Positions 2,855-55,223 of a stretch of DNA of 64,000 nt are shown piece after piece. Both the position numbers and the translations under genes were made by a program. The stretch is taken from assembly GCA_028277405.1 (NCBI GenBank), contig JANQGH010000078.1:31557-95556 (forward strand), in the 5' to 3' direction. The stretch's first letter is position 1. The number at the start of each line of letters is the position of its first letter. The stretch comes from Alphaproteobacteria bacterium (GTDB lineage: Bacteria; Pseudomonadota; Alphaproteobacteria; DSM-16000; Inquilinaceae). The notes under the pieces were generated by a model. That model saw only the letters and a list, made by a program, of their open reading frames with translations. It did not search any database and was not told the DNA's origin.

Positions 2855-2882
2855 GAGCCCAATTCAAACAAGGAGGAAGACA

Positions 2883-3893: not shown

Positions 3894-3915
3894 CACTGGA
3901 GGACACATCTGGTGA

Positions 3916-3936
3916 GCGGGGCGCCGGGCGCCCCGC
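3916..3936 (+). terminator. GC-rich stem-loop after dctP (no U-tract)
   Basis: GCGGGGCGC-cgg-GCGCCCCGC is a perfect 9-bp inverted repeat, 23 nt after the dctP stop and 23 nt before the next start. Confidence 0.4.
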
Positions 3937-3958
3937 CGACGCCTGACGGAGAGCACTC

Positions 3959-24590: not shown

Positions 24591-24990
24591 CCGCGATGCC
24601 GAGGATCTGTTGGCCGAGCGGGTGTCGACGTCAGCTATGAGGCGGTTCGCCCGTGGGCATTGAAACTCGGCCCTCAGATTACAGGTCGCCTGTGACGGCT
24701 TCGGCACAGGCCAAGGACGACGAAGGCGAGGTGCTTGAGATCCTCGTCCAGCGTCGGCGGAACCGGGCCACAGCTGGCAGGTTGATGCGCACTCTGCCGA
24801 AAAAGCAGGGCTTGTGCCGTCCGTAGTCACAGCCGACAAGCCGGGCTGCTATGGAACTGCGTTCAACGATTTGGGCCTTTCAGCGCAACACGAGCAGGGT
24901 CTGAGGAAGAACAACCGGGCCGAAGTCTCACATCAGCCTAACCGCCGGCGCGAACGAAAGATGCTGCGGTTCAAATCGCACGGCTCGGCT
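24591..24990 (+). pseudogene. IS6-family transposase pseudogene (5'-truncated, frameshifted, internally deleted)
   Basis: Pieces lie in three frames: RDAEDLLAER / GVDVSYEAVRPWALKLGPQI / DDEGEVLEILVQRRRNRATAGRLMRTLPKKQGL / VPSVVTADKPGCYGTAF...GLRKNNRAEVSHQPNRRRERKMLRFKS. They match the conserved IS6-family transposase order. The N-terminus and the central DDE segment are missing, and no terminal inverted repeats were seen. Confidence 0.7.
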
Positions 24991-25043
24991 TGGATGTTCC
25001 GACCTGCCCCCTTTGAAGATGAGGAGCGACGCCGAAGAAGCTG

Positions 25044-25805
25044 CTAACGCTGAACCTCGACAAGGACGGCCTTGTCGCTTAGCGGGGGTCCCTTGGAGGC
25101 TTTGTCCCAAAAGGCAAAGAGTAAACTGACCGCATTCAGACCATACGCGATGGACTGGTTTCCACCCAGGTACTTTGCGGCGAACGCGCCCAATGAAGCG
25201 GCAAAGCTTGCGGTCGATGCGACTTTCTTCAGGAGGTGTCTTTGCGGGTCGTTCCATGAGAGCACGGCCTGGGCCCCTGAGAATCCGGTCGCCAGCAGGC
25301 TTAGTCCGGTGTCGATTTGTCCAAGCGAAGCATTGCCAAATACGCCGGATTCTGAAATCAGCGGTCTGGCGGCGGACATGGCCTTGGTGGCCAAGGCGGA
25401 CATCTCAACAGCATGCTGTTGGCGCTTCCTGGTGATGTCTCGCCAGTGATCATCGTGAACGACGGGTGATCGAGATGCAGGATGTGGGGTGCTGCCGGCG
25501 TGGCCCGTTTCGACGGCCTTGAGAATCGCCGGGTCATCGATTTTCCCTGGTCCCTGGTCAAGCAGCCATTGGGCGATACTGCCCGTCCCCAAGACGTAGT
25601 GGTCCGGAGTATCCGGCACGGAAATCAGCGGTGTCGACGCTCCGAGTTCTGGTGGTGCATCGGTTGCCGAGGCAACGGCCGAAACCTCCGAAGAGAGGAG
25701 TGCTTGTCGAAGCCATCCATAATGAGTTCCGCCAATGCCGATGATCCCGACATTGACTGATGGAAATGTCTTGAGGATTTCGTCAGTGGCTTTGTCGGCG
25801 GTCAT
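25044..25805 (-). CDS. Orphan hypothetical protein (253 aa), no family recognised
   Basis: This is the longest protein-like ORF in a lower-GC patch. Third-position GC in the first 22 codons is clearly lower than in neighbouring genes, and there is no Shine-Dalgarno sequence before the ATG. The C-terminal third has small-residue-rich hydrophobic segments (GLSLLATGFSGAQAVL, ASFAASLGAFAAKYLGG, AYGLNAVSLLFAFW). Confidence 0.4.
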   Translation of the reverse strand: MTADKATDEILKTFPSVNVGIIGIGGTHYGWLRQALLSSEVSAVASATDAPPELGASTPLISVPDTPDHYVLGTGSIAQWLLDQGPGKIDDPAILKAVETGHAGSTPHPASRSPVVHDDHWRDITRKRQQHAVEMSALATKAMSAARPLISESGVFGNASLGQIDTGLSLLATGFSGAQAVLSWNDPQRHLLKKVASTASFAASLGAFAAKYLGGNQSIAYGLNAVSLLFAFWDKASKGPPLSDKAVLVEVQR

Positions 25806-26080
25806 AGTCGGAGGAACCTGGCACGGTTTTCACGGGTGTCTGCACATGGCTGTCAATCCACTAGGCATTCGATTTTGGTCGTTTTCAAGTGAAAAAGTGG
25901 TGCGGAACTGGTCCAGATACGCGCAATTCGAAGCTGAAGAGACAGACTGCGCGACATTTGGAAGCACTGTCAGCCATCATTCCCGGTGCTTCGCCGCGGT
26001 TACGCCGAGGCGAAGATCAGGGCCAGCGTGCCTCAAAGGCCGGATGAGGCGCACCTGTTGGGGGTCTGCTACGGGCTGTC

Positions 26081-26155
26081 CCGCGAGGTTGCATGAGCAC
26101 TTTAAGGGTATCCTGCAAGTCGATGATTATGCGGGGTTTGAGAGGCTTGCCGAAA
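26081..26155 (+). mobile_element. Short IS66-family transposase fragment
   Basis: The translation ...PARLHEHFKGILQVDDYAGFERLA... resembles the conserved IS66 transposase motif (..F.G.LQ.D.YAGY..L). It is only about 25 codons long with no flanking transposase sequence. Confidence 0.45.
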
Positions 26156-26163
26156 GCGACGCG

Positions 26164-26343
26164 GCCAGCCTGATAGGTCGTGAAGGCGAGACTGACCTGC
26201 TGTTCCGCTAGCCAGGCGGGGAAGTGTCGTGACGCGGTGACCTCGAACGTGGCATCGGACGTCGCCTCGGGAAGGCTCTCAGCGGTTTCGCCAGACGCGC
26301 TTGGCTGCTGGCCTAATGCATCGGCGTCTGGGTCGACAGCCAT
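26164..26343 (-). pseudogene. Truncated N-terminal fragment of a TIGR03032-like conserved hypothetical gene
   Basis: The ATG at 26343 has a GGAGGTG Shine-Dalgarno sequence, 30 nt after the giant gene's stop. Residues ...TFEVTASRHFPAWLAEQQVSLAFTTYQAG match my recollection of the TIGR03032 N-terminal motif. Similarity stops at about 26164, where the antisense of the IS66 fragment begins. Confidence 0.5.
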
Positions 26344-26372: not shown

Positions 26373-29300
26373 TTAGACAAGCAGGAAATCGTCATCGTGG
26401 AGTTCCGCCAGGTTCACGCCGAGCAGCGTGACACTGTCGTCGGCATCGAGGGCGATCACCACATCATCGCCAACCTGGCTCGCGGCCGTCAACACGTCGG
26501 CCCCATCGGCAAACCCGAACGCCGCGATGTCCAGGACATCGTCCGAACCGGCGCCGGCCTGGAAGTCTACAACCGTATCGTTGCCACTGCCGTCTGCGAA
26601 GATGAACAGGTCGTCGCCGACTGCACCGGTCATCCGATCGTCGCCCGCATCGCCGGTGATCGTGTCGTCGCCTTGGGCCGCGACGATAATGTCGGCATTG
26701 GCCGTGCCCACGAGGATGTCCGCGTTCGCCGTGCCCACGACGTCGACGGCACCCGTCGCGTTGTTGCCGAAGATGACGTAGCTTTCTCCGGCATTGCCGA
26801 TGCTGCCTTTGTCCGCCAGAAATGCGCTGACGATCAGGTCATCGAACCCGTCGCCATTTACATCGCCCGCGCCACTCACCGATCGACCGACACGATCGCC
26901 GATGTCAATGCCGTCGAGGCGGAAACCGTTGGTCCCGTCCAGTGTCGCAAGATCGATTGCCGGGTCGAACCCTCCCGCAGCGCCGAACACCACATAGCTT
27001 TCCCCGGCTGTCTCGTTACCATTGGGATCGCCGCGCACGGCGCCGATGATCACATCGTCGAAGCCGTCACCATTGAAATCGCCCGCGCCGCTGACGGACC
27101 AGCCCGCATCATCGACCGGATCAATGCCGTCGAGGCGGAAGCCGTTGGTCCCGTCCAGCGTCGACAGATCGATGTTGGCGGCAAATCCACCAGCGGCGCC
27201 GAAGACCACATAAGCTTCACCGCCTGGACTGGCCTTGTAAGCGCCGATGATGATGTCATCGAAGCCGTCACCGTTGACGTCGCCGGCATCGCTCACCGAC
27301 ACGCCTGAACGGTCGGAGGCATCGATGCCGTCCAGCCGGAAGCCGTTGGTGCCGTCGAGCGTCGACAGATCAAACGAAGCTGCGAAGCCGCCGGCGGCGC
27401 CGAACACCACGTAGCTCTCGCCCGCTTCGCCGTTGCCGCCGGGATCCGCCTGTCGTGCACCGATGATCAGATCGTCGAACCCGTCGCCATTGACGTCGCC
27501 GGCACTGCTGACCGAAACGCCCGAATAATCGTCGGCGTCGATACCGTCGAGCCGAAAGCCGTTACTGCCGTTGAGCGAGGCTAGATCGAGCGCCGGAGCA
27601 AAGCCGCCGGCGGCGCCGAACACCACATAGCTTTCGCCGGTGAAGCCGTTGCTGCCGGCTGCCCCGACGATCACGTCGTCGAACCCGTCTCCATTGATGT
27701 CGCCGGCACCGCTGACCGAATACCCAGAGGCGTCAACGCTATCGATACCGTCGAGCCGGAAGCCATTGGTACCGTCAAGCGACGCCAGATCAAGCGCAGG
27801 CGCAAAACCGCCTGCGGCGCCGAACACCACATAGCTCTCGCCGGCCAACGCGTCGCCGCCAGGGGCAGCGTAGACGGCGCCAATGATCAGATCATCAAAT
27901 CCGTCGCCGTTGACGTCCCCGGCATCGCTCACCGAGACGCCCGAGCGATCGGAAACATCGATGCCTTGCAGGCGAAAACCGTTGGTTCCGTCCAAGGTCG
28001 ACAGGTCAATCGCGTCGGGGAACCCGGCCGCGGCGCCGAATACCACGTAACTCTCGCCGGCTTCGTTGTTGCCGCCGGGGCTGGCGGCAAATGCGCCGAC
28101 GATGACGTCGTCGAACCCGTCACCGTTGATGTCACCCGCGCCGCTGACCGAAAAGCCCGAGCGATCATTGTTGTCAATGCCGTCGAGCCGGAAGCCGTTG
28201 CTGCCGGTCAGGTCGGCAAGCGATATGACGGCAGGGAAATCAATCGTCGCGGTAAGCTCGCTTTCGACAAGCACCGTCGCCTGGCCGAGGGAAAATGCCC
28301 TATAGGTGCCTGTCTCGCCCAGCGGGTCGATAACCGCCGCGCCCTCACCCCAGAGGCCCTCCAGCAGCACCGTGTCGGCGGCATCGCCCTTGATCAGGAT
28401 CGTGTTCGAGGTCGAGGACAGGCCAAGAACATCGAGCCTGTCGAGAACAATCGTGTTGGCCGTCGATCCGCCGAGGTCGATCTTCTCGACGTCGACGAGC
28501 CGGTTGTCGGAAAGAGATGGGGACGGACCAAGCGCATCGACATTGACCGTGTCGATACCCGACCCGAGATCGACCGCGAGGGCCCCATCCGGCCCGATCA
28601 CCGCGACATCGTCGCCGGCACCGCCGCGGAACGCGTCCAGGCCGCCACCGCCGATCATGAGATCATCTCCGAGGCCGCCGACGAAGCTTTCAGCAGCCAC
28701 CGTGCCGATCAGCGTGTCATTCGCGTCGCCGCCGAGGAATGCCACAGTGCCCGTGACGTCGCGGCCAAAGATCACGTAGCTTTCGCCGGCATCTACGGCA
28801 CTACCGGGATCGCCGCCAGGTGCGCCGATGATCAGGTCATCGAACCCGTCGCCATCGATGTCACCGGCGGAACTGACTGAGAAGCCCGCAGCGTCGACGA
28901 GGTCAATACCGTCAAGCCGGATCCCGTTGGTCCCGTCCAAGGCCGACAGATCAAGCGCGGCGCCAAACCCGCCCGCGGCGCCGAACACGACGTAGCTTTC
29001 ACCGGCACCTTCGACACCGCCTGGATCACCTCCGAAGGCGCCGATGATCAAATCATCGAACCCGTCGCCATTGAAGTCGCCGGCGCCGCTGACCGAATGA
29101 CCGGCGTTGTCGCCGTTCGCGATTCCGTCAATCCGGAAGCCATTGCTGCCGTCGAGCGTAGACAGATCGAGTGCCGGTGCAAAACCGCTGCCGGCACCGA
29201 ACACCACATAGCTTTCGCCGGCTGCATCATTTCCACCTGGATCACCTCCGGCGGCGCCGATGATCAGGTCGTCGAAACCATCGCCGTTAACATCGCCGGC

Positions 29301-32300
29301 ATTGCTGACGGAGTTGCCTGAGAGATCGCCTGCATTGATGCCGTCGAGCCGGAAGCCGTTGCTGCCGTCCAAAGTCGACAAATCCAGGAAACTGCCGAAG
29401 CCGCCCGCGGCCCCAAACACCACGTAGCTCTTGCCTGCGTTGGCGTCGCCACCCAGGTCAGCCTGCCGAGCCCCGATAATCAGGTCGTCGAACCCGTCGC
29501 CGTTGACGTCGCCGGCGTCGCTCACGGAAACGCCGGAGTAGTCGCCAGGGTCGACACCGCCTATGCGGAACCCAACAGTGCCGTTCAAACTGCCGAGGCT
29601 GAAGTCAGAAGGAAACGCGTTGGGGCCGCCGAATATCACGTAGCTTTCGCCGGCCTCGGCGTTGCCGGCCGGGTCGGCGCGTGCAGCGCCGATGATAACG
29701 TCATCAAAGCCGTCACCGTTGAAGTCGCCAACACCGCTCACGGAGTATCCCGACACATCGTTGTCGTCAATGCCGTCGAACCGGACCCCATTGGTCCCGT
29801 CCAGCGTCGACAGGTCGAGCACGGGTGCAAAGCCGCCCGCGGCACCGAACACAACATAGGTCTCGCCCGCCCTGTCGCTGCCGCCGGGGTCGCCATATAC
29901 GGCGCCGATGATCAGGTCGCCGAACCCGTCGCCGTTCACATCACCCGCGGAGCTCACGGAAACGCCCGAACGGTCGGACACATCGATGCCGTCCAGCCGA
30001 AAGCCGTTGGTACCATCCAGCGTCGACAGATCGACGGCAGCCGGGAACCCGCCCGCCGCGCCGAACACCACATAGCTCTCGCCGGCCTCGCTATTGCTGT
30101 TGGGATCGGCGAGGACCGCACCGATGATGATATCGTCAAACCCGTCGCCATTGACGTCCCCGGCGCTGCTCACGGACCGGCCTGAGATGTCGGAACCGTC
30201 AATACCATCGAGCCGGAAGCCGTTATTTCCGTCGAGGTCGGCAAGCGATATGACGGTTGGGAAAGCGACGGTCGCAGCCACCTCGCTCTCGACCAGCACG
30301 GTTGCTTGGCCGAGCGAGAATGCGGTGTATGTACCCGTCTCTCCAAGCGGGTCGACAATGTCCGCGCCCTGCGTCCAAAGACCGTCAAGCACGACCGCGT
30401 CACTGGCATCGCCCTTGATCAGAACCGTGTTGGAGGTCGAGGACAGGCCAAGGACGTCAAGCTTGCCGAGAGTCAGCGTATTGGCCGTGGAGCCGCCCAG
30501 GTCGACCTTCTCGACGTCGACGAACAGGGTGCCGGAGAAGGAGGGTGCCGGACCGAGCGCATCGACATTCACCGTGTCGATGCCCGACCCGAGATCGACC
30601 GCAATGGCTCCGTCGGCCCCGATGACCGCAATGTCGTCGCCGGCCCCGCCGCGAAATGCATCAAGGCCACCGCCGCCGACCATGAGGTCATTGCCAAGGC
30701 CGCCGACGAAGCTTTCGGCCGCCACCGTGCCGGTCAGCGTGTCGTCTGCGTCGCCGCCGAGGAACGCCACCGCGCCATTCACGTCGCCGCCAAGGATCAC
30801 GTAGCTTTCGCCGGCGCCTGGACCAGCTTGCAGGGTACCGATGATCAGGTCATCGAAGCCGTCGCCATTGATGTCGCCGGCTCCGTTGACCGAAATGCCC
30901 GATGCTTCGAAGGCATCGACGCCCTCGAGCCTGAAACCGTTGGTCCCGTCCAGTGTCGAAAGATCGAGCACCGGTGCGAAACCACCCAAGGTGCCGAATA
31001 CGACATAGCTTTCACCGGCAAACTCACTGCCGCCCGGATTGCTGCGGGCAGCGCCAATGATCAGGTCATCGACGCCGTCGCCGTTGAAGTCGCCGGCATC
31101 GCTTACCGAGATACCGGCACCATCGCCAGCATCGATACCGTCGAGCCGGAAGCCGTTACTGCCGTCCAACGCCTCAAGATCGAGCGTCGCGGAGAATCCG
31201 GTGCCTCCGAAAACGACATAGGTTTCACCGGCCTCTGCCTTGCCGCCCGGGTCGGCATTTGCGGCGCCGACGATCAGATCGTCGATCCCGTCGCCGTTCA
31301 CGTCGCCCGCGCCACTCACCGAGGCCCCCAAGGCGTCGCCGCCATCAAGAGCATCGATCCGGAAGCCGTTGTCGCCATTAAGGGTCGACAAATCCAAAGC
31401 ACCGCCGAAGCCACCCGCGGCACCAAACACCACGTAGCTGGCGCCGTCCCCTCCGTTGGCAGCGATTGCGCCGACAATCAGATCGTCGAACCCGTCGCCG
31501 TTGATGTCGCCGGCGTTGCTGATCGAAGCGCCTAGGGCGTCGCCGGCGTCAATGCCGTCAATACGGAAGCCATTGCTCCCGTTCAGTGCGCCGAGGTCCA
31601 GAGCGGCGGCAAAGCCTTCCGCGGCACCGAACACCACATAGCTTTCGCCGGCATCCTGGTTGCCACCCGGGTCGCCGCGAAACGCGCTGATGATAACGTC
31701 GTCAAGTCCATCGCCGTTGACGTCTCCGGCGCCGCTGACATTGATGCCTGCGAAGTCGCCGTCGTCGATGCCGTCGAGCCGGAAGCCGTTGCTGCCGTCG
31801 AGCGTGGACAGGTCGAACGCGGGCGCGAAGCCGCCGGCGGCGCCGAACACGACATAGCTCTCGCCGGATGCTCCATTGCCGCCCGCTTCACCGTAAGCCG
31901 CGCCAATGATGACGTCGCCAAATCCATCGCCGTTGACGTCGCCAGCACCACTGACCGCAATGCCCGATAAATTGCCGGGACCGATGCCGTCGAGCCGGAA
32001 ACCGTTGCTGCCGTCAAGGCTCGACGGATCGAAAACGGCAGGGAATCCATCGGCGGTGCCGAACACGATGTAGCTTTCGCCGGCATCCTCGTTGCCGTCC
32101 GGATCGCCTCGAGCTGCGCTGACGATGATGTCGTCGAACCCGTCGCCGTTGAAGTCCCCAGCACTGCTAACGGCCTGACCAAAGACGTCGGTATCGTCAA
32201 TGCCGTCGAGCCGGAAACCGTTGGCGCCAGTCAGGTCGGCAAGCGATATGACGGACGGGAAGCCGACGGTGACGGTAAGCTCGCCCTCAACAAGCACCGT

Positions 32301-35300
32301 GGCCTGGCCGAGGGAGAATGCCTGGTAGGTTCCCGTTTCTCCCATCGGATTGATGACGTCGGCGCCCTGGCCCCAAAAGCCCTTCAGCAAGATCGAGTCG
32401 GCGGCATCGCCCTTGATCAGAACCGTGTTCGACGTGGAGGACAGGTTGAGCAGGTCGAGCTTGCTGAGAGCCAGCGTGTTGGCCGTCGATCCGCTGAGGT
32501 CGATCTTCTCCACGTCGACGAACAGGGCACCGGAAACGAAAGGCGACGGCCCGAGCGCATCGATGTTGACCGTGTCGATGCCCGAACCGAGATCAACCAC
32601 GAGGGCCCCGTCCGGCCCGATCACGGCAATGTCGTCACCGGCCCCACCGCGGAACACATCGAGCCCACCGCCGCCGATCATGAGATCATTGCCGCGGCCA
32701 CCGACAAAGCTCTCCGCCGCCGCCGTGCCGGTCAGCGTGTCGTTCGCGTCGTTGCCGAGATACGTGACCGCGCCGGTCACGTCGCCGCCGAAGATCACAT
32801 AGCTTTCACCGGCGGCGGCATTTGCGAGTGGAGCACCGATGATCAAATCATCGAACCCGTCGCCATTGACATCGCCCGCCGCATTGACCGACGGGCCCGA
32901 GTAATCGGCCGGATCGATTCCGTCGATGCGGAAACCATTGGTCCCGTCCAGCGCCGACAGGTCGAGCGCCGCCGAAAAACCGCCAGCAGCGCCAAACACC
33001 ACATAGGTTTCGCCAGCATCGGCGTTGCCGTTCGGATCGCCGCCGAAGGCGCCGATGATCAGATCGTCGAAACCGTCGCCATTGAAGTCGCCGGCACCGC
33101 TGACCGCAAAACCCGATGTGTCATCAGCATCGATGCCGTCGAGCCGGAAGCCATTGGTTCCGTCCAGCGCCGATAGATCAAAGGTAGGGGCGAAACCGCC
33201 TGCAGCCCCAAAAACGACATAGCTCTCGCCGGCGCCTGCCTCGCCGCCGGGGTCCGCCTCCCGGGCCCCGACAATGAGATCATCGAAACCATCGCCATTG
33301 ACGTCGCCCGCGCTGCTAACGGACACACCTGCATTGTCGTCGGCGTCGACGCCGTCCAGCCGGAAGCCGTTGCTGCCATCCAAGGTCGACAAATCGAAAG
33401 AGCTGCCGAAGGCGTCCGCGCCGCCGAACAAAACATATGCCCCGCCGGCTGCGTTGTTACCGTCAGGATCGATCCCACTGGCGCCAATAACGAGGTCAGC
33501 AAAACCGTCGCCGTTGACGTCCCCCGCCCCGCTGACCGAATAGCCGAAGCTGTCGCCGGCATCGAGACCGGCGATCCGGAACCCATCGTTGCCGTTCAGC
33601 CCCCCTAGATCGATGACGGCAGGGAATCCACCCGCAGCGCCGAACACCACATAGCTTTCGCCGGCAATGTTAAAACCGTCGGGATCAGCACGGCGCGCAC
33701 CGACGATGATGTCGTCAAAGCCATCGCCATTCATGTCGCCAGCGCTGCTGACCGAGAAGCCCGAGATGTCGTCGGTATCGACGCCGTCGAGGCGGAAACC
33801 GTTGCTGCCATCCAGTGTCGCCAGATCGAACGCGGGAGCAAAGCCGCCTGCGGCGCCAAACACCACGTAGCTTTCCCCAGCTCCGTCCTCACCATTCGGA
33901 TCGGCCTCTACAGCGCCAATGATCAGGTCGCTGAAACCGTCACCATTGACGTCGCCCGCTGTGCTCACTCGCCGCCCCGAGAAATCGCCAGCGTCGATAC
34001 CATCGAGCCGGAAGCCGTTCGTTCCATCCAGCGTGGCCAGATCGAGTGTAGCCGAGAATCCGCCGGCGGCGCCGAACACCACATAGCTTTCGCCGGCATA
34101 GGCCTCGCCGCCCGGACTGCCGCGATAGGCGCCGATGAAAATGTCGTCAAAGCCATCGCCGTTGACATCCCCGGCGGTGCTGACAGATCCGCCCGCCACG
34201 TCGCCGCCATCGATGCCGTCTATCCGAAAGCCGTTGGTACCGTCGAGATCGGCGAGGCTGAAGCTGCCCGTGATGGTGACGGTGACGGTTTGGATGTCGG
34301 TTTCCGCGCCGTCGGAGACTTGCAGCGTGTAATCGAGCACCAGCGTTTGCCCGAAACCCAGATAGTCGAACGCCTCAGCCCCGGAATCGAAGTCCCAGGC
34401 GATCGTTCCGGTCGTGGCGGTGCCGTCGATCACGGGGTTGGGCCCCAGATTCAGCATGGCGAGCAGCATGGCGTCGTCCGGCCGCCCGGCACTGGGCGCC
34501 GTTCCGCCTGCTGTCACTGAAAGAACGACCGCATCGACGCTGTCATTAAGGTCGGGGTCGGCGACCGTTAGCGTCCCGCTGGCGGTCAGCCCGGCATCGG
34601 TCTCGTCCAGCGCCACGGACGCGCTGTCGCCCGCCTCAATGGTGATCTCCGGCGCATCGTTGGCGCCGTCAAACTGGAAGTCGTCCTCGTGAAGGTCGGC
34701 GAGCTGGACGTTAAGCAGCGTGACGCTGTCGTCGGCGTCGAGCGCGATGACGACATCGCTGCCAAGCTCCGTCGCCGCCGCCAGCACACCGGCCAGATCC
34801 ACGAAGCCGAAGGCGCCGATTTCCAGTACGTCGTCGGTCCCGACGCCGGCCTGGAAATTCTCGATCGTGTCGTTGCCGCTGCCGTCGACGTAGAGGAACA
34901 GGTCGTTGCCGGCCCCACCATCGAGCGTGTCGTTGTCCGCCCCGCCATCGATGACATCGTCTGCGCTGCCGCTCAGGATGGAGTCATTGCCAGCGCCGCC
35001 ATTGACGACCTGCGTGATGCTGGAGGCGCTGGCGTCGAACACATCGTCGCCATCTCCGAGATTGGTGGTGACCGTGTTCTGGCTAACGCCCGCGGTTTCC
35101 AGGTTGGCGCCGATCGTGACACTGTCGGCGCCATCCCCTGTTGCGATCTCGATATCCTCGATACCGGTGACGGAGGAGGCAACGCCGTCGACACGGCTCG
35201 CAAAGTCGCCGTCATTGTCGACATTGTCGATGACGATGACATTACCCGAACCATCGCCATTGATCACCAGGGTGTCGTCGCCCAATCCGCCATCGATTAC

Positions 35301-38300
35301 GTCAGCGCCGTCGCCGACGGTATAGACGATCGTATCGGCGCCCCCGCCCGCATCGATCACGTCGTTGCCGCCAAGCCCCTCGATGAGATCGGTTCCGTCG
35401 CCCCCGACCAGAGTGTCTCTGTTGGCCGTGCCGGACGATCCACCATCGACATCGCCGACCTGGGACGCAGCCGCGCTGATGGCGCCGTTAAGAGCGGAGC
35501 CGGTGAACTGTTGCTCGGCATTTGAGGCGTCGTCGTTCTCGCCGGCGTCGGCAAGGGCGTCCGCCGCGTCGCCCTGAGCGACGATGGCGACCTTGGCAAT
35601 CTCCGTCAGCAGAGCGTTGTCCGGACTGCTCGTCTCCAGCTCCGAAATCTTCTCATTAGAGGCCGCGATGACGGTCGATGCGTCCTCCGCGGTGTTGGCC
35701 ACCGCCGCCGCGCCGATGCCGGCGTCGACCGCCGCATCGGTGATGAGTGTCTCGACGGTCTGCGGATCGTCCAGCGGCAGGGGGCCGCCTGCGCCGGCCA
35801 GATCGGCCGCCAGGCTGTCGAAAGCGACGTCAATGGCGGTGTCCTCATCGACGGCCCCTTGGCCTGCCCCTTCAACGAGGGCGGCAACCTGAACGACCGT
35901 GTTTTGGACCTGAACCTGCGTGGCAAGGATTTGCGCACCGACCGGATCACCCGCGGCGGCGGCCTCGACGGGATCGAATGTCGACAGGTCGACACCCGAC
36001 GGCAGGTCAAGCGATTGTTCTAGAATGGCTTGCGCCGCCGACGCATCGAGCGCCGCGCCGCTATCGATCAACGCGGCCATCAAGGTCGTGAGGGGCGTCA
36101 AAACCGTCGACCCTTCCGGGGCCCGCAACTGGCCCTTGAAGGCAAGGCCGGTCGATACGTCGACGCCGCCGAACAGGACAAGTGGCCCAGCCCCACCCAC
36201 CAGGCTGAAATCGCCGTCGGCATTGGTTGTGGTGAAGGCCTCGCCGCCGTCGAGAACGCCATTCATGTTGGCATCGGCAAAGACCGTCGCACCTGCGATG
36301 TAACCATCGACCGCCGACCCGATAAGCGCGTCCTCGACGACAACATTCAGCTCATCGGACACGAACTGGCCGCTTGTGTCGGTCGCCGTGACGACGACGG
36401 TGTAGGTGCCGTTGTCTCCGTCCAGCGGCGCTCCGGACAGCCGACCGGTCACACTGTCAAATTGCATCCAGGTTGGCAGCGGATCGCCATTGAGCAGCGT
36501 GGCGGAGAATGTCAGCGTGTCCGACGCGTCTGCATCGGCGAAGGCCGGGCCGGTATCGAGTTCGAAGCCGCCACTTTCCTCGGCAACCGACGGGTCCGGC
36601 AAGGAGGCAATCAGGATCGGCGCATCGTTTTCTCCGGTCACCTCGACCGTCAGGGTCGAAGACGACGGCGCGCCACTGTCGTCGGACATCGTGTAGTCGA
36701 TGGTCACCATGGCGGTATCGCCGACATCGAGCTCGTCGAAGTCCGTGCCCGGATCGAACCGGACCTGGTTGCCATCGATCGTCACGGACCCTGTGGTCAG
36801 GGCCCCTGCCGCGATGCCGGCCACCGACACGCCGTCGATGCTGTCCAGCGAAAAGGTCGCCGGGCCGTCGCCCGCGTCGACATCCGTATCGTTGGCCAGG
36901 ACATCAACGGTCAGGATGGTGTTCTCCGCCGTGCTGTCCGCATCCGATGCCGCGACCGGCGCCTCGTTCACGTTCGTCACCGTGACGGCGATGGTCTGTG
37001 TCGTTGGCGTGACGCCGTCCGTGACCTGAACCTCGACCTCATAGACGTTGTCGGCATCGGCATCGCCAGGCGTTTCGAAGTCAGGCGCATTGACGAAGGA
37101 GAGGTTGCCATCATTGTCGATGGTGAACAGGGCGTCATCGGCCCCGTTGCCGGTGATCGAGAATTCCAGCGGCCCGCCGACGGTGTCGGCATCGGTCGCG
37201 ATCACCTGCAGGACGGTCTGGGTGTTCTCGCCCACCGTAGCGCTGTCGGACGAGCTGATGATGGGCGCGTTGTCGTTCTCGTCCCCCACTGTGACGGTGA
37301 TGGTTTGGGTATCGATATTGAAGCCGTCGCTTGCCTCGACCGTGACTTCGTAAAGGTTGTCGGCGTCGGCATCGGCGGGGGTTTCGAAATCCGGCGCCGT
37401 GTTGAAGGTCAGACCCCCCGTGTCGGCATCGATGCTGAACAGGGCGGCATCCGCCCCGCCGACAATCCTGAAGACCGGCGTCTCGCCATCGGCGTCCTCG
37501 GCCATCACGGTTGTCACCGAGCCTGTGTTCTCGGCCACGGCGATCGACGCCGTTTCGCCGCCGCCATCACTGGTGATGACCGGCGCGTTCGGGCTCGGGA
37601 CCTGGGTGAATGTCACCGCATCGATACGGGCGAACTCCCAGGCATCGCGGGTGCCCTTCAGGGTGATCTCGTCACCCTGTTTCAGCGACAGACCGTCGAT
37701 GACATGGGTTGAGATCGTCGAGCCGTCGCCTCCATTGCCGTTGTTGTTTTGCGTCAGGTCAATCGTCTCGATCAGAACGCCGTTCAGATAGATCTCGATG
37801 GCGCCTTCGCCGTCATTCTCGTCGATGTAGGCAAGCCTGAAATCGTAAAAGCCGTCTTCAGCGCCGAAGACAAAGGAGGCTTCGCCCTCGTCCCGTCTCA
37901 ACCGGATCACCTGGCCGCCGGACGCGGCGTCGACATCGTCTTCCCGATAGTTCCGAAGCGCCATGTCTTCGGCTTCGATCGTAAATGTACCGTCCGCATC
38001 CGGCTGCCAGACCAGCCCGGCGGAGAGTTCGCGATAGCGCACCCAGTTGCCGACGACATTGCCGGTGTCGACGACCGTCAACTGCGCCCCCGGCGGCGGA
38101 ACATCACCGAGGAAGGCGAAGAAATCATCGCGATCGGTTTCGCTGACGCCGCTAACCTCAACATCGATTAGGTAGAACCGATTGCCGTCTTGGTCTTCGA
38201 GAACGAGATATCGCTCCGCGTAGATCCGGACGCCCTCGTGCACGGTCTCGCCGTCCAGCACGATATCCGCCCGTTGGCCGGTTCTATCGTTGCCAATCTC

Positions 38301-38480
38301 GTTTCGGTAGGCATCGCCGGAAAGGCCACCGTCATTGTCCTGAACAGTGACAGCCGCACTGGCACTAACCGGCATCACAAATGCGTCGCCAACATTCAGC
38401 CAGTCATCGTCTGCGGCTAGGAGTTCAGAACCGATAAAGGCGGTGAACTCGTAAGTACGAAGATGCGAGTTGTTCGGCAT
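26373..38480 (-). CDS. Giant (4035 aa) mosaic RTX / cadherin / FG-GAP repeat surface protein, probable type I secretion substrate (adhesin-like)
   Basis: A single uninterrupted 12,108-nt ORF with no N-terminal signal peptide. It has GGxGxD nonapeptide blocks, an acidic composition and a C-terminus ...LHDDDFLLV. The domain layout is detailed in the sub-features below. Confidence 0.9.
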   Translation of the reverse strand: MPNNSHLRTYEFTAFIGSELLAADDDWLNVGDAFVMPVSASAAVTVQDNDGGLSGDAYRNEIGNDRTGQRADIVLDGETVHEGVRIYAERYLVLEDQDGNRFYLIDVEVSGVSETDRDDFFAFLGDVPPPGAQLTVVDTGNVVGNWVRYRELSAGLVWQPDADGTFTIEAEDMALRNYREDDVDAASGGQVIRLRRDEGEASFVFGAEDGFYDFRLAYIDENDGEGAIEIYLNGVLIETIDLTQNNNGNGGDGSTISTHVIDGLSLKQGDEITLKGTRDAWEFARIDAVTFTQVPSPNAPVITSDGGGETASIAVAENTGSVTTVMAEDADGETPVFRIVGGADAALFSIDADTGGLTFNTAPDFETPADADADNLYEVTVEASDGFNIDTQTITVTVGDENDNAPIISSSDSATVGENTQTVLQVIATDADTVGGPLEFSITGNGADDALFTIDNDGNLSFVNAPDFETPGDADADNVYEVEVQVTDGVTPTTQTIAVTVTNVNEAPVAASDADSTAENTILTVDVLANDTDVDAGDGPATFSLDSIDGVSVAGIAAGALTTGSVTIDGNQVRFDPGTDFDELDVGDTAMVTIDYTMSDDSGAPSSSTLTVEVTGENDAPILIASLPDPSVAEESGGFELDTGPAFADADASDTLTFSATLLNGDPLPTWMQFDSVTGRLSGAPLDGDNGTYTVVVTATDTSGQFVSDELNVVVEDALIGSAVDGYIAGATVFADANMNGVLDGGEAFTTTNADGDFSLVGGAGPLVLFGGVDVSTGLAFKGQLRAPEGSTVLTPLTTLMAALIDSGAALDASAAQAILEQSLDLPSGVDLSTFDPVEAAAAGDPVGAQILATQVQVQNTVVQVAALVEGAGQGAVDEDTAIDVAFDSLAADLAGAGGPLPLDDPQTVETLITDAAVDAGIGAAAVANTAEDASTVIAASNEKISELETSSPDNALLTEIAKVAIVAQGDAADALADAGENDDASNAEQQFTGSALNGAISAAASQVGDVDGGSSGTANRDTLVGGDGTDLIEGLGGNDVIDAGGGADTIVYTVGDGADVIDGGLGDDTLVINGDGSGNVIVIDNVDNDGDFASRVDGVASSVTGIEDIEIATGDGADSVTIGANLETAGVSQNTVTTNLGDGDDVFDASASSITQVVNGGAGNDSILSGSADDVIDGGADNDTLDGGAGNDLFLYVDGSGNDTIENFQAGVGTDDVLEIGAFGFVDLAGVLAAATELGSDVVIALDADDSVTLLNVQLADLHEDDFQFDGANDAPEITIEAGDSASVALDETDAGLTASGTLTVADPDLNDSVDAVVLSVTAGGTAPSAGRPDDAMLLAMLNLGPNPVIDGTATTGTIAWDFDSGAEAFDYLGFGQTLVLDYTLQVSDGAETDIQTVTVTITGSFSLADLDGTNGFRIDGIDGGDVAGGSVSTAGDVNGDGFDDIFIGAYRGSPGGEAYAGESYVVFGAAGGFSATLDLATLDGTNGFRLDGIDAGDFSGRRVSTAGDVNGDGFSDLIIGAVEADPNGEDGAGESYVVFGAAGGFAPAFDLATLDGSNGFRLDGVDTDDISGFSVSSAGDMNGDGFDDIIVGARRADPDGFNIAGESYVVFGAAGGFPAVIDLGGLNGNDGFRIAGLDAGDSFGYSVSGAGDVNGDGFADLVIGASGIDPDGNNAAGGAYVLFGGADAFGSSFDLSTLDGSNGFRLDGVDADDNAGVSVSSAGDVNGDGFDDLIVGAREADPGGEAGAGESYVVFGAAGGFAPTFDLSALDGTNGFRLDGIDADDTSGFAVSGAGDFNGDGFDDLIIGAFGGDPNGNADAGETYVVFGAAGGFSAALDLSALDGTNGFRIDGIDPADYSGPSVNAAGDVNGDGFDDLIIGAPLANAAAGESYVIFGGDVTGAVTYLGNDANDTLTGTAAAESFVGGRGNDLMIGGGGLDVFRGGAGDDIAVIGPDGALVVDLGSGIDTVNIDALGPSPFVSGALFVDVEKIDLSGSTANTLALSKLDLLNLSSTSNTVLIKGDAADSILLKGFWGQGADVINPMGETGTYQAFSLGQATVLVEGELTVTVGFPSVISLADLTGANGFRLDGIDDTDVFGQAVSSAGDFNGDGFDDIIVSAARGDPDGNEDAGESYIVFGTADGFPAVFDPSSLDGSNGFRLDGIGPGNLSGIAVSGAGDVNGDGFGDVIIGAAYGEAGGNGASGESYVVFGAAGGFAPAFDLSTLDGSNGFRLDGIDDGDFAGINVSGAGDVNGDGLDDVIISAFRGDPGGNQDAGESYVVFGAAEGFAAALDLGALNGSNGFRIDGIDAGDALGASISNAGDINGDGFDDLIVGAIAANGGDGASYVVFGAAGGFGGALDLSTLNGDNGFRIDALDGGDALGASVSGAGDVNGDGIDDLIVGAANADPGGKAEAGETYVVFGGTGFSATLDLEALDGSNGFRLDGIDAGDGAGISVSDAGDFNGDGVDDLIIGAARSNPGGSEFAGESYVVFGTLGGFAPVLDLSTLDGTNGFRLEGVDAFEASGISVNGAGDINGDGFDDLIIGTLQAGPGAGESYVILGGDVNGAVAFLGGDADDTLTGTVAAESFVGGLGNDLMVGGGGLDAFRGGAGDDIAVIGADGAIAVDLGSGIDTVNVDALGPAPSFSGTLFVDVEKVDLGGSTANTLTLGKLDVLGLSSTSNTVLIKGDASDAVVLDGLWTQGADIVDPLGETGTYTAFSLGQATVLVESEVAATVAFPTVISLADLDGNNGFRLDGIDGSDISGRSVSSAGDVNGDGFDDIIIGAVLADPNSNSEAGESYVVFGAAGGFPAAVDLSTLDGTNGFRLDGIDVSDRSGVSVSSAGDVNGDGFGDLIIGAVYGDPGGSDRAGETYVVFGAAGGFAPVLDLSTLDGTNGVRFDGIDDNDVSGYSVSGVGDFNGDGFDDVIIGAARADPAGNAEAGESYVIFGGPNAFPSDFSLGSLNGTVGFRIGGVDPGDYSGVSVSDAGDVNGDGFDDLIIGARQADLGGDANAGKSYVVFGAAGGFGSFLDLSTLDGSNGFRLDGINAGDLSGNSVSNAGDVNGDGFDDLIIGAAGGDPGGNDAAGESYVVFGAGSGFAPALDLSTLDGSNGFRIDGIANGDNAGHSVSGAGDFNGDGFDDLIIGAFGGDPGGVEGAGESYVVFGAAGGFGAALDLSALDGTNGIRLDGIDLVDAAGFSVSSAGDIDGDGFDDLIIGAPGGDPGSAVDAGESYVIFGRDVTGTVAFLGGDANDTLIGTVAAESFVGGLGDDLMIGGGGLDAFRGGAGDDVAVIGPDGALAVDLGSGIDTVNVDALGPSPSLSDNRLVDVEKIDLGGSTANTIVLDRLDVLGLSSTSNTILIKGDAADTVLLEGLWGEGAAVIDPLGETGTYRAFSLGQATVLVESELTATIDFPAVISLADLTGSNGFRLDGIDNNDRSGFSVSGAGDINGDGFDDVIVGAFAASPGGNNEAGESYVVFGAAAGFPDAIDLSTLDGTNGFRLQGIDVSDRSGVSVSDAGDVNGDGFDDLIIGAVYAAPGGDALAGESYVVFGAAGGFAPALDLASLDGTNGFRLDGIDSVDASGYSVSGAGDINGDGFDDVIVGAAGSNGFTGESYVVFGAAGGFAPALDLASLNGSNGFRLDGIDADDYSGVSVSSAGDVNGDGFDDLIIGARQADPGGNGEAGESYVVFGAAGGFAASFDLSTLDGTNGFRLDGIDASDRSGVSVSDAGDVNGDGFDDIIIGAYKASPGGEAYVVFGAAGGFAANIDLSTLDGTNGFRLDGIDPVDDAGWSVSGAGDFNGDGFDDVIIGAVRGDPNGNETAGESYVVFGAAGGFDPAIDLATLDGTNGFRLDGIDIGDRVGRSVSGAGDVNGDGFDDLIVSAFLADKGSIGNAGESYVIFGNNATGAVDVVGTANADILVGTANADIIVAAQGDDTITGDAGDDRMTGAVGDDLFIFADGSGNDTVVDFQAGAGSDDVLDIAAFGFADGADVLTAASQVGDDVVIALDADDSVTLLGVNLAELHDDDFLLV
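26376..26618 (-). other. C-terminal module of the giant protein (putative T1SS secretion/folding domain)
   Basis: GDDLFIFADGSGNDTVVDFQAGAGSDDVLDIAAFGFADGADVLTAASQVGDDVVIALDADDSVTLLGVNLAELHDDDFLLV. Position and composition fit an RTX-protein C-terminal region. Confidence 0.6.
26619..26768 (-). repeat. Terminal RTX nonapeptide block
   Basis: GTANADILVGTANADIIVAAQGDDTITGDAGDDRMTGAV contains GGxGxD-like calcium-binding repeats. Confidence 0.75.
26769..28226 (-). repeat. FG-GAP array 4: seven blades (predicted beta-propeller)
   Basis: Seven units of about 62-70 aa, each with ...NGFRLDGID..D..G.SVS.AGD(V/I/F)NGDGFDD(L/V/I)I(I/V)(G/S)A...GESYVVFGAAGGF...DLS.LDG. Confidence 0.85.
28227..28766 (-). 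repeat. Inter-propeller linker module 3 (RTX nonapeptides plus conserved beta-rich domain)
   Basis: GRDVTGTVAFLGGDANDTLIGTVAAESFVGGLGDDLMIGGGGLDAFRGGAGDD...VDVEKIDLGGSTANTIVLDRLDVLGLSSTSNTILIKGDAADTVLLEGLW...YRAFSLGQATVLVESELTATIDFPAV. Confidence 0.8.
28767..30251 (-). repeat. FG-GAP array 3: seven blades
   Basis: Seven GD(V/F/I)(N/D)GDGF(D/G)D loops were counted, with the same blade consensus as array 4. Confidence 0.85.
30252..30791 (-). repeat. Inter-propeller linker module 2
   Basis: GGDVNGAVAFLGGDADDTLTGTVAAESFVGGLGNDLMVGGGGLDAFRGGAGDD...VDVEKVDLGGSTANTLTLGKLDVLGLSSTSNTVLIKGDASDAVVLDGLW...YTAFSLGQATVLVESEVAATVAFPTV. Confidence 0.8.
30792..32249 (-). repeat. FG-GAP array 2: seven blades
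   Basis: Seven GD(F/V/I)NGDG(F/L/I/V)(D/G)D loops were counted. Confidence 0.85.
32250..32790 (-). repeat. Inter-propeller linker module 1
   Basis: GGDVTGAVTYLGNDANDTLTGTAAAESFVGGRGNDLMIGGGGLDVFRGGAGDD...VDVEKIDLSGSTANTLALSKLDLLNLSSTSNTVLIKGDAADSILLKGFW...YQAFSLGQATVLVEGELTVTVGFPSV. Confidence 0.8.
32791..34268 (-). repeat. FG-GAP array 1: seven blades
   Basis: Seven GD(V/M/F)NGDGF(D/S/A)D loops were counted. The array starts at ...ITGSFSLADLDGTNGFRIDG. Confidence 0.85.
34269..34670 (-). other. VCBS/Ig-like beta domain between the internal C-terminal-like module and propeller 1
   Basis: DGANDAPEITIEAGDSASVALDETDAGLTASGTLTVADPDLNDSVD...IAWDFDSGAEAFDYLGFGQTLVLDYTLQVSDGAETDIQTVTVTITG has a pattern typical of VCBS-type repeats in large RTX adhesins. 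Confidence 0.55.
34671..34910 (-). repeat. Internal copy of the C-terminal module (aa 1191-1270)
   Basis: GNDLFLYVDGSGNDTIENFQAGVGTDDVLEIGAFGFVDLAGVLAAATELGSDVVIALDADDSVTLLNVQLADLHEDDFQF aligns without gaps to the true C-terminus. My hand alignment gives 51 identities in 73 positions. Confidence 0.85.
34911..35435 (-). repeat. Internal RTX nonapeptide block (aa ~1016-1190)
   Basis: GTANRDTLVGGDGTDLIEGLGGNDVIDAGGGADTIVYTVGDGADVIDGGLGDDTLVINGDGSGN...NGGAGNDSILSGSADDVIDGGADNDTLDGGA. Confidence 0.8.
35436..36332 (-). other. Ala/Asp/Val-rich non-repetitive stalk region (aa ~717-1015)
   Basis: It starts DALIGSAVDGYIAGATVFADANMNGVLDGGEAFTTTNADGDFSL.... A long Ala-rich, probably helical stretch follows (...AAQAILEQSLDLPSG...AALVEGAGQGAVDEDTAIDVAFDSLAADLAGAG...). 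No family was recognised. Confidence 0.4.
36333..36629 (-). other. Dystroglycan-type cadherin-like (Cadg / He_PIG-like) Ig domain
   Basis: ...FADADASDTLTFSATLLNGDPLPTWMQFDSVTGRLSGAPLDGDNGTYTVVVTATD... matches the characteristic LP.W..FD..TG.LSGTP...D.G.Y...V.A.D pattern. Confidence 0.7.
36630..36965 (-). other. VCBS/bacterial cadherin-like domain
   Basis: NEAPVAASDADSTAENTILTVDVLANDTDVDAGDGPATFSLDSIDG...VRFDPGTDFDELDVGDTAMVTIDYTMSDDSGAPSSSTLTVEVTGEND. Confidence 0.6.
36966..37586 (-). repeat. Two tandem cadherin-like repeats
   Basis: Each unit of about 105 aa follows ...AENT..V..V.A.DAD....F.I.G.GADDALF.ID...G.L.F...PDFE.P.DADADN.YEV.V...DG....TQTI.VTV.(D/N)(E/V)N(D/E)(N)AP. Confidence 0.75.
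37605..37994 (-). other. CBM6/CBM35-like (galactose-binding-like) putative lectin domain
   Basis: FTIEAEDMALRNYREDDVDAASGGQVIRL...EASFVFGAEDGFYDFRLAYIDENDGEGAIEIYLNGVLIETIDL...LKQGDEITLKGTRDAWEFARIDAVTF matches the IEAED...ASGG...G.Y.....Y......I.....G........G.........L..G...I.........D.I.F pattern of CBM6-type modules. Confidence 0.5.
37995..38480 (-). other. N-terminal ~160 aa of the giant protein, no recognisable family
   Basis: MPNNSHLRTYEFTAFIGSELLAADDDWLNVGDAFVMPVSASAAVTVQDNDGGLSGDAYRNEIGNDRTGQRADIVLDGETVHEGVRIYAERYLVLEDQDGNRFYLIDVEVSG... has no signal peptide or TM segment. Confidence 0.4.
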
Positions 38481-54396: not shown

Positions 54397-55223
54397 TGGA
54401 CCGGGTGTTCCGCCAAAGCGCTTGGGCAAGCCTGGTCTTGTGGGCCGGCGCGCTGGTCATGCTGTTCCCGGCTGTCTGGATGGTGCTGTCGGCTTTCAAA
54501 TCGCCGCAAGAGCTGTTGGACTATCCGCCGACCTTCCTGCCCCAGGCCTGGTCATTCGAGTACATTCAGTACATTTGGACGGAGCGGAATTTCGGCCGGA
54601 TGATGCTAAATTCGGTCTTCGTCTCGACCACGGTCACGCTGCTGACGGTCCTTTCCAGCGCGTACATCGCCCACGTCTTCCGCGAATTCCGCTTTCCGCT
54701 GCGCCGGCCGTTGTTCTATCTGATCATCGCCACCACGATGATACCGCTGCCGGTGCTGGTGCTGCCGCATTTCCAGATCGTCTACTGGTTCGGCTGGCTG
54801 AACACCTATCAGGCCCTGATCCTGCCCTACGCCCTTTGGGGCTTCGGCGTCTTTTTGATCTACCAATTCCTGGCGGGCTTTCCGCGCGACCTGATCGAGG
54901 CCGCGCGGATCGAGGGGGCGAGCGAACGGCAGATCTTCCAGTACATCGTCCTGCCCCTGATCAAGAGCCCCTGCGTCGCGCTGGGCATCATAACCTTCCT
55001 GCACCAGTGGGAATCGCTGCTCTGGCCCCTGATCGCCGCCAACTCGCCCGATATGCAGTTGCTGCCGGCGGGGCTTGCCGCCCTGTCCAACAATGCCATC
55101 GAGTCCGCGGATCTGTTCAACCCCTACTCCGCCGCGCTGATCGCCGCGTTCCCGCTCCTTGTCGCCTTTCTGATCTTCCAAAGGATGATCGTGAAGGGCA
55201 TCGCCATGACGGGCATCAAATGA
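54396..55223 (+). CDS. ABC sugar transporter permease (MalG-like)
   Basis: The ATG at 54396 overlaps the previous stop (ATGA), giving MDRVFRQSAWASLVLWAG.... The EAA loop is ...LIEAARIEGASERQIFQYIVLP.... Confidence 0.85.
   Translation: MDRVFRQSAWASLVLWAGALVMLFPAVWMVLSAFKSPQELLDYPPTFLPQAWSFEYIQYIWTERNFGRMMLNSVFVSTTVTLLTVLSSAYIAHVFREFRFPLRRPLFYLIIATTMIPLPVLVLPHFQIVYWFGWLNTYQALILPYALWGFGVFLIYQFLAGFPRDLIEAARIEGASERQIFQYIVLPLIKSPCVALGIITFLHQWESLLWPLIAANSPDMQLLPAGLAALSNNAIESADLFNPYSAALIAAFPLLVAFLIFQRMIVKGIAMTGIK

Follow-up and report, generated by a model that had tools for sequence, protein, structure and literature searches.

Four predicted integrin-type propellers, each blade with an intact calcium-loop motif, alternate with RTX modules in a giant alphaproteobacterial protein that is a candidate secreted adhesin

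The stretch of DNA analyzed here, called the window below, covers 64,000 nucleotides of contig JANQGH010000078.1 from an alphaproteobacterium of the Inquilinaceae. It encodes on its minus strand a giant protein whose C-terminal two-thirds include four blocks of seven FG-GAP blades, similar to the propeller of the integrin alpha head. The calcium-loop motif is intact in all 28 blades, and successive blocks are joined by conserved modules of the RTX type. The reading that we consider most likely, and on balance probable, is that of an adhesin or matrix protein secreted by a type I system and folded by calcium. From N- to C-terminus, the giant protein consists of a region resembling carbohydrate-binding modules (CBM), cadherin and Ig-like domains, a first RTX block, three successive units made of a propeller and a 178-amino acid (aa) RTX module, a fourth propeller, and terminal RTX repeats. 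It contains no cysteine, 17% of aspartate plus glutamate and 2.5% of lysine plus arginine. The coordinates of all features are collected in Table 1.

The number of blades was established in three ways. The regular expression GDx[ND]GDGxxD has exactly 28 matches in the giant protein, between aa 1437 and 3881, in four runs of seven. In 2,000 shuffles of the protein the mean number of matches was 0.0085 and the maximum was 1. Within the runs the loops are spaced by 72 aa (occasionally 67, 68 or 71), and the gaps between runs measure 239, 239 and 243 aa. The Pfam FG-GAP profile (PF01839) likewise recognizes 28 stretches (568 bits for a cut-off of 22.1, E = 1e-175), and a hidden Markov model (HMM) of the blade built from the 28 copies, a check that is partly circular, gives 28 matches of 84-116 bits. 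Since this model finds nothing else above 1 bit over the giant protein, the four blocks account for all blades, and none lies hidden elsewhere in degenerate form. An earlier note on this DNA, made from the letters alone, had announced 28 blades arranged as 7+7+7+7 between 26769 and 34268, all with an intact calcium-loop motif, and had proposed a profile count as a check. The motif and profile counts agree with this figure, and the blocks as delimited here (26760-34259) coincide with the interval proposed. The letters FG and GAP name the family and are not required by its profile: SG, AG, LG or VG stand in place of FG in 26 of the 28 blades, with the glycines kept, and the literal GAP occurs once.

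Table 1. Features of the giant protein and of the DNA directly downstream of its gene (window positions; aa, amino acids of the giant protein)
Feature	Residues (aa)	Window position	Strand	Basis or remark
Complete open reading frame of the giant protein	4,035 aa + stop	26373..38480	-	single open frame, ATG start
N-terminal region of two beta-sandwiches	1-295	37596..38480	-	AF2 model and Foldseek
Second N-terminal beta-sandwich, CBM6/35/36-like jelly-roll fold	~160-295	37596-38003	-	AF2 and Foldseek
Cadherin / Cadherin_4 / Big_9 / He_PIG Ig-like domains	~300-715	36336..37583	-	Pfam
Ala/Asp/Val-rich stretch (~290 aa) separating the He_PIG domain from the first RTX block	~720-1010	35451..36323	-	sequence read
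First RTX block	1017-1268	34677..35432	-	HemolysinCabind matches; NCBIfam PueAB-like match at 1017-1268
Ig/VCBS-like connector before propeller 1	~1290-1407	34260..34613	-	weak reading by eye; no significant Pfam match
Propeller 1 (P1), 7 FG-GAP blades	1408-1900	32781..34259	-	motif and blade HMM
K1, RTX beta-roll + cap module, 178 aa	1901-2078	32247..32780	-	identity to K2 and K3
Propeller 2 (P2), 7 blades	2079-2566	30783..32246	-	motif and blade HMM
K2, RTX beta-roll + cap module	2567-2744	30249..30782	-	identity to K1 and K3
Propeller 3 (P3), 7 blades	2745-3241	28758..30248	-	motif and blade HMM; modelled block
K3, RTX beta-roll + cap module	3242-3419	28224..28757	-	phmmer and AF2 model
Propeller 4 (P4), 7 blades	3420-3907	26760..28223	-	motif and blade HMM
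RTX repeats at the C-terminus, with a putative signal for type I secretion	3908-4035	26376..26759	-	HemolysinCabind 1.3e-9; ends DDDFLLV
Truncated DUF4915 start (N-terminal fragment)		26017-26343	-	E = 2.7e-4
IS66 transposase fragment		25735-26211	+	downstream of the giant gene
IS240-type DDE fragment		24814-25047	+	downstream of the giant gene

The fold was examined on P3, which was modelled together with K3 (aa 2731-3419) by AlphaFold2 (AF2) from an alignment of the four units of the window and 19 homologs. The mean predicted local distance difference test score (pLDDT) is 86.6, with values around 90 through the propeller, and the predicted TM-score (pTM) is 0.75. DSSP assigns seven repeats to the P3 model, in each of which a short strand and a helix of a single turn accompany four strands (GFRLD, SVSSAG, LIIGA, SYVVF). 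The Dx[ND]xDGxxD loop is placed between strands 1 and 2, modelled as SVSSAG and LIIGA; the motif itself is present in 28 of 28 blades. When the P3 model was compared with the PDB by Foldseek, each of the top 50 matches was the propeller of an integrin alpha head (E-values of 1e-22 to 1e-18 over about 545 aligned columns). The target-normalised TM-scores were 0.70-0.75, for targets that are essentially propeller-only chains of 440-455 aa. Because the model superposes on whole integrin alpha heads, P3 is predicted to form a closed seven-blade ring of this type and not a solenoid. For the one block modelled, the structure-prediction check suggested in the earlier note thus speaks for a closed ring. 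A phmmer match of P3 to the calcium-binding blades 4-7 of integrin alphaV (E = 3e-13) was also obtained. The propellers are pairwise 66-74% identical, and on this basis P1, P2 and P4 are assumed to fold like P3. Counts and model together support the view of that note that four separate seven-blade propellers of the integrin alpha type follow one another on a single polypeptide.

The order of strands is consistent with ring closure. Each block starts with an NGFRLDG strand (strand 4 in integrin numbering) and ends after a YVIFG strand (strand 3). As this strand-4-first, strand-3-last order is the one that closure needs, we infer that the N-terminal strand supplies the outer strand of blade 7, in a so-called velcro closure; in integrins the N-terminal strand completes blade 7 (PMC3192720). 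Neither thigh nor calf domains were found by Pfam and no convincing transmembrane segment is present, so that the giant protein is not an integrin alpha subunit of the metazoan kind.

The structural matches also bear on the possibility that the rings are catalytic, as in the RGL11 rhamnogalacturonan lyase and aldos-2-ulose dehydratase, or linked to toxins, as are the TcB propeller and the archaeal VCBS toxins. These families do belong to the same VCBS/FG-GAP supercluster (PMC8023676), but none of them appears among the top 50 Foldseek matches, no catalytic domain or lyase family was matched in Pfam or NCBIfam, and four near-identical catalytic rings in one chain would be unusual. We consider an enzyme or toxin module very improbable.

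The segments between the propellers were counted as three linkers in the earlier note. Their number is right, but they are not mere spacers: K1, K2 and K3 are each 178 aa long, are mutually 77-80% identical, and have the characters of RTX beta-roll modules with a serralysin-like cap. With phmmer, K3 matches the CyaA RTX block (1.5e-7) and residues 327-458 of the C-terminal domain of serralysin/PrtC (1e-6), and in the AF2 model it is made of short beta-roll strands followed by a capped sandwich. The profile PF00353 reaches 46 bits over 4 stretches in the whole protein, and further matches are found in the linkers and the tail. As the linkers are conserved modules of this kind, the repeat unit of the array is a propeller plus an RTX module, hereafter noted P7-K.

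We then compared the copies with one another. The mean pairwise identity of the 28 blades is 66%, and 70% for blades occupying the same position in different propellers. When the blades were matched by DNA to their best counterparts in the other propellers, both blades occupied the same position in 35 of 84 cases (chance expectation 12), and a faint trace of whole-propeller duplication therefore remains. Between propellers, the synonymous divergence (dS) is 1.1-1.5 and the ratio of nonsynonymous to synonymous divergence (dN/dS) is 0.14-0.20. The codons of the motif vary synonymously among copies, and no exact DNA repeat of at least 40 nt was found among the propeller copies. The calcium loop is the most constrained element, with a proportion of synonymous differences (pS) of 0.77-0.80 and of nonsynonymous differences (pN) of 0.04-0.06 (pN/pS 0.06-0.08). 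These results support the view that the propeller copies are old and under strong purifying selection. The earlier note had left the choice between such selection and homogenisation of the copies. The ratios just given, over the propellers and in the calcium loop, argue for selection; recent gene conversion or homogenisation of the propellers is ruled out by the dS values together with the lack of exact repeats, and the degree of protein divergence and the synonymous differences in motif codons point the same way. One observation stands apart: dS among the linkers K1-K3 is 0.66-0.69, below that of the flanking propellers, though joint duplication would be expected. Gene conversion at a later time and limited to the linkers, or turnover of blades within the propellers, are possible explanations.

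The opposite behavior is seen in the 4-1 and 2-3 loops, where the blade varies most (entropy of 1.55 and 1.73 bits, pN/pS 0.46-0.62). In a four-stranded meander, loops alternate between the two faces, and in integrins the calcium hairpins (strands 1-2) are on the side opposite to the ligand. By analogy, the variable 4-1 and 2-3 loops would fall on the face that holds the ligand in integrins and the calcium loops on the opposite one. As to the calcium-dependent binding device suggested in the earlier note, the predicted calcium loops would by this topology serve structure or folding more probably than the binding of a ligand. The pN/pS values of the top-face loops do not support positive selection, in a test that is weak, as synonymous sites are saturated and the blades compared are paralogous.

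Divergence among copies also speaks against an artefact, i.e. an array produced by collapse or expansion of repeats during assembly, or the remnant of a decaying gene close to insertion sequence (IS) elements. The fragments of IS66 and IS240 and the truncated DUF4915 gene lying directly downstream count in favor of this explanation, as does the break of a short-read assembly at the giant gene in the same locus. However, the frame is open over 12.1 kb without interruption, the copies differ by about 30% in DNA and hence are not collapsible repeats, and dN/dS is well below 1. Moreover, the architecture is collinear over aa 1275-4034 with a metagenomic protein of 4,178 aa (ENA protein P0168, 40% identity). 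We give this explanation hardly any credence.

The propellers are accompanied in the giant protein by domains of the adhesin type, i.e. cadherin, He_PIG and Big_9 domains and the CBM-like fold. Under the reading of a calcium-folded adhesin or matrix protein, the chain would be exported unfolded, C-terminus first, through a type I secretion system whose genes would lie at another place in the genome. It would fold outside the cell on meeting millimolar Ca2+, with the RTX modules and the 28 blade loops acting as structural calcium sites. Such sites would keep the protein competent for export in the low-calcium cytosol and make it rigid outside, and we propose that the very strong purifying selection on every loop reflects the need for both. 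Once folded, the four propellers would be the interaction modules of a multivalent adhesin or matrix protein, and would offer their variable 4-1 and 2-3 loops, which in integrins make up the face toward the ligand, to a glycan or protein.

Secretion by a type I system is plausible from the C-terminus of the protein, and its RTX repeats and its acidic composition without cysteine speak for it as well. Substrates of the protease and lipase type are said, from work of Ghigo and Wandersman in 1994, to end with an acidic residue followed by hydrophobic residues, and the end of the giant protein, DDFLLV, is presumably an ending of this type. The tails of homologs end in a similar way (D-x-x-D-F-hydrophobic), as does that of P0168: DLANLDATDFVL. 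A hydrophobic signal was not seen at the N-terminus of the giant protein.

Several points weigh against this reading. The C-terminal tail resembles the RTX and C-terminal parts of EglC, serralysin and PueAB at scores below the curated NCBIfam cut-offs. Across the 64-kb window, a search for type I secretion genes found neither an ATP-binding cassette (ABC) transporter nor a membrane fusion protein nor TolC, which weakens the assignment to type I, although such genes can be unlinked. A retention module of the LapA/MpIBP type was not found at the N-terminus of the giant protein and the LapG-type cleavage motif [TAP]AA[GV] is absent from its first 400 aa; for these reasons the protein may be released instead of anchored to the cell. 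The variability of the 4-1 and 2-3 loops, with pN/pS below 1 and saturated synonymous sites, could be due to relaxed constraint and not to ligand specificity. Finally, the ring closure of P3 is deduced from the TM-score to whole integrin heads and from strand order, with one of the four propellers modelled.

The same design was then sought in other proteins. In a word-indexed search, 7,985 of the 8,000 scored candidates had E <= 1e-10, so that there are at least 7,985 homologs at this level; in the best 120 of them, intact loops come mostly in runs of exactly seven (76 such runs, with 11 runs of 14). A HMMER search over 1.84 billion cluster representatives gave 59,426 proteins at E <= 1e-3, of which 14,755 reach E <= 1e-30. 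The top 150 of these matches contain 317 motif runs that are exactly seven long, and four, five and six exact runs of seven are present in 8, 4 and 2 proteins, respectively. The number of propellers varies from 1 to at least 6 among homologs. Sixty homologs with at least three propellers were retrieved, many of which strictly alternate in the P7-K order. Examples are a 3,411-aa protein of Pelagibius litoralis (WP_167224885.1, P7-K x4), a 4,126-aa protein of Aureimonas altamirensis with six propellers (WP_285292760.1), and a protein from a metagenome-assembled genome (MAG) of Magnetococcales. In Nitrosomonas the propeller + K unit also stands alone, in proteins about 660 aa long that carry the annotation "integrin alpha" or "FG-GAP repeat protein" and are matched with a coverage of 98-100%. 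Judged by these motif counts, the multi-propeller calcium-loop design is very common in bacteria.

This distribution gives some interest to a more tentative proposal, for which we see a lesser though real chance, namely that the P7-K super-repeat is a cassette for secretion and folding during C-to-N export by the type I pathway. In this case the capped RTX module would emerge first, fold on Ca2+ and act as a ratchet or folding nucleus, and the 490-aa propeller would follow it out blade by blade. The calcium loop of each blade would be selected mainly to keep the toroid unfolded in the low-calcium cytosol, and not for a ligand. Such a role would explain why 28 loops out of 28 are conserved, why dozens of lineages keep to a strict P7-K alternation and why stand-alone P7-K proteins exist. 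For the RTX blocks of CyaA, three publications present calcium-driven, cap-dependent, C-to-N folding and ratcheting as established (PMC9120197, PMC10511787, PMC8486122). No description of a secretion or folding-cassette role of FG-GAP propellers was found in the literature searched; one preprint lists FG-GAP proteins as presumed type I secretion cargo.

Variation in copy number is also typical of extender regions, and the range of 1 to at least 6 propellers among homologs is thus a point for a rigid extender, in which the propellers would form a calcium-stiffened spacer, free of ligand, projecting the CBM-like or cadherin region away from the cell in the manner of the Ig-like extenders of RTX adhesins. 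The modules are repetitive and highly similar and, by analogy, would depend on calcium, as expected from such a spacer. Ligand-binding domains of RTX adhesins are usually carried at the C-terminal end. This is the end where the propellers are found here, which does not suit a spacer; a propeller of 490 aa would be a costly one, and stand-alone proteins made of a single unit argue for an intrinsic function. An extender is in our opinion distinctly unlikely.

PVL, an integrin-like fungal lectin, and tachylectin-2 bind sugars between their blades. If the propellers studied here did the same, the giant protein would be a multivalent lectin with monosaccharides or polysaccharides in inter-blade pockets, cross-linking algal or bacterial exopolysaccharide or docking onto it; this is a specific sub-case of the adhesin reading. 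With blades so nearly identical, a ring could hold up to 7 equivalent sites; a CBM6/35/36-like fold is present at the N-terminus, and the window encodes a GH116-like enzyme, a sulfatase and many genes for sugar uptake. Furthermore, propellers of the VCBS/FG-GAP type are typically tied to carbohydrate recognition (PMC9218822, PMC8023676). However, the best matches in both structure and sequence are integrin heads and not PVL or tachylectin, and sugar-binding residues were not identified. The inter-blade positions are among the variable ones, where a common sugar pocket would need conservation. A lectin of this kind seems to us rather unlikely.

The AF2 model of aa 1-295 (pLDDT 85.1, pTM 0.76) shows two beta-sandwiches, and the second one aligns with the CBM36/CBM35 structures 7ay3, 1w0n and 2w1w (Foldseek TM-score of 0.73-0.76 relative to the target, root mean square deviation about 3 A). 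Pfam gives no match in this region, and only 9 sequence homologs were found, all in fragments of alphaproteobacterial MAGs. A genome scan with the N-terminal 300 aa recovered relatives that are 49-63% identical in Paracoccaceae, Silicimonas and Limibaculum MAGs, plus two weak matches in Halomonas (about 30% identity). The longest open frames of these relatives contain no propeller runs, and the N-terminal module is therefore apparently joined to other C-terminal parts elsewhere. Judged from the relatives in Paracoccaceae, Silicimonas and Limibaculum, the host is probably a marine alphaproteobacterium resembling the Rhodobacterales. Downstream of it, the Ig-like region is matched by Cadherin (4e-16), He_PIG (2e-13), Cadherin_4 (5e-13) and Big_9 (5e-10), and the Ala/Asp-rich stretch that comes next has no family match in Pfam.

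Within the first RTX block, aa 1158-1268 (window 34677-35009, minus strand) are an internal copy of the RTX and secretion-tail region found at the protein's own C-terminus. By BLASTP the two are 59% identical over 111 aa (E = 5e-37), and the internal copy ends with DDFQF where the true C-terminus ends with DDFLLV. This copy lies just upstream of the propeller cassette and looks like a fossil terminus. Such a position suggests that an older exoprotein of about 1,290 aa received the cassette by addition or insertion.

The genes around the giant gene are for uptake transporters and enzymes of catabolism. Encoded in the window (5158-7809, 54422-56728, with transporter genes throughout) are a GH116-like glycosidase, a sulfatase and an enzyme of the dihydroxy-acid/6-phosphogluconate dehydratase family, together with several ABC uptake systems of the sugar and peptide types and two TRAP transporters. 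This gene set fits a marine heterotroph using complex or sulfated carbohydrates, and could be the setting of an adhesin directed at glycans. The DNA that follows directly downstream of the giant gene and carries the IS and DUF4915 fragments (24814-26343) is a stretch of lower GC content. In Pelagibius litoralis an intact DUF4915 gene likewise lies downstream of the four-propeller homolog, with an IS240 gene upstream, and the P0168 locus is flanked by DDE_Tnp_1 genes. These arrangements of genes may reflect a partnership with DUF4915 or mobility of the giant propeller genes. A search of a plasmid collection with the flanking DNA gave only short matches to TRAP transporters, and an exact look-up of the giant protein in public assemblies gave no match. 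The ilvD-like neighbour gene has an identical copy only on a 12-kb Logan contig (SRR20820739), whose neighbouring genes are similar by Pfam family. At the position of the giant gene, this contig ends inside a fragment of 1,471 residues. Because such repeats break short-read assemblies, multi-propeller proteins are probably under-counted in metagenomes.

If the reading of a calcium-folded adhesin or matrix protein is right, the giant protein offers a clean and unusually regular example of large calcium-dependent surface proteins built from integrin-type propellers. With four near-identical rings and about 7 predicted calcium sites in each, it would be a convenient model for calcium-triggered folding of propellers after type I secretion, and for finding the ligands of bacterial integrin-like propellers. 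It would in this respect represent a large family, that of the 59,426 representatives reported above.

The closest precedents are the propellers described by Chouhan et al. in 2011 (PLoS One 6:e25069, PMC3192720), who found integrin-type seven-bladed propellers in bacteria with the calcium motif in all seven blades. These bacterial propellers are more regular than those of integrins and sometimes occur in tandem, as in the 14-repeat proteins of Rhodobacterales HTCC2654, e.g. A3VFV0. By description, the giant protein shares with them seven FG-GAP repeats per domain, a calcium motif in every blade, loops more regular than in integrins, a strand order that would let the N-terminal strand complete blade 7, tandem copies, the absence of a transmembrane helix and an alphaproteobacterial host. 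It differs from them, as they are described in that paper, by having four propellers instead of one or two, and by RTX modules between propellers, which are not described there. The earlier note had contrasted the calcium loops present in all blades with integrins, where only some blades keep them. The contrast with integrins holds, but it does not make this gene special, as such loops are the norm in bacterial propellers (PMC3192720) and in the 120 close homologs. The resemblance to the integrin alpha heads themselves (alphaV, alphaIIb and alpha5; 3zdz, 8tcf and 4wk0) lies in the predicted seven-blade ring, the Dx[DN]xDG hairpin between strands 1 and 2 and the velcro order. In integrins, on the other hand, calcium sites are present in only 3-4 blades, the blades have diverged, and the repeat is about 60 aa long compared to 72 aa here, with a sequence identity of only 17-21%. 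The thigh, calf, transmembrane and cytoplasmic parts of integrins, with their GFFKR tail, and their obligate beta subunit have no counterpart here.

Pereira and Lupas placed the FG-GAP/alpha-integrin propellers in the VCBS supercluster and described bacterial propellers with more than 60% internal identity (PMC8023676, PMC9218822). The propellers of the giant protein resemble this highly repetitive group: they are bacterial, are of the FG-GAP/alpha-integrin lineage and have a mean internal identity of 66%, for a criterion of a median above 60%. Unlike in propellers amplified recently, synonymous sites are saturated between blades here, and the high blade identity is thus better read as constraint on an old array than as recent amplification. 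As in CyaA and serralysin, the K linkers and the tail consist of GGxGxD nonapeptide repeats followed by a capping structure. The RTX blocks alternate with large propellers here, whereas they are contiguous in CyaA, and neither a region for acylation or pore formation nor a protease domain is present. In Bap1 and RbmC of Vibrio cholerae, the propeller is single, has eight blades and carries a beta-prism lectin as an insert; their export follows the type II pathway, and they lack RTX modules. The two proteins, described as biofilm matrix adhesins (PMC3161981), can be likened to the giant protein by description, as secreted proteins of matrix or adhesion built on a calcium-binding propeller of the FG-GAP type.

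The alternation of propellers and RTX modules was not found described in the literature searched. The giant proteins of Pelagibius and Aureimonas and P0168, all annotated only as "FG-GAP-like repeat-containing protein", have in common with the present one the P7-K super-repeat and loops that are all intact; their N-terminal halves consist of DUF5801 or other Ig-type domains, whereas a CBM-like region and cadherin domains occupy this place here. The fold, the calcium motif in all blades and the tandem copies are already known from the literature and from RefSeq. The giant protein overturns nothing in this respect, and is a well-preserved member of a known and abundant kind.

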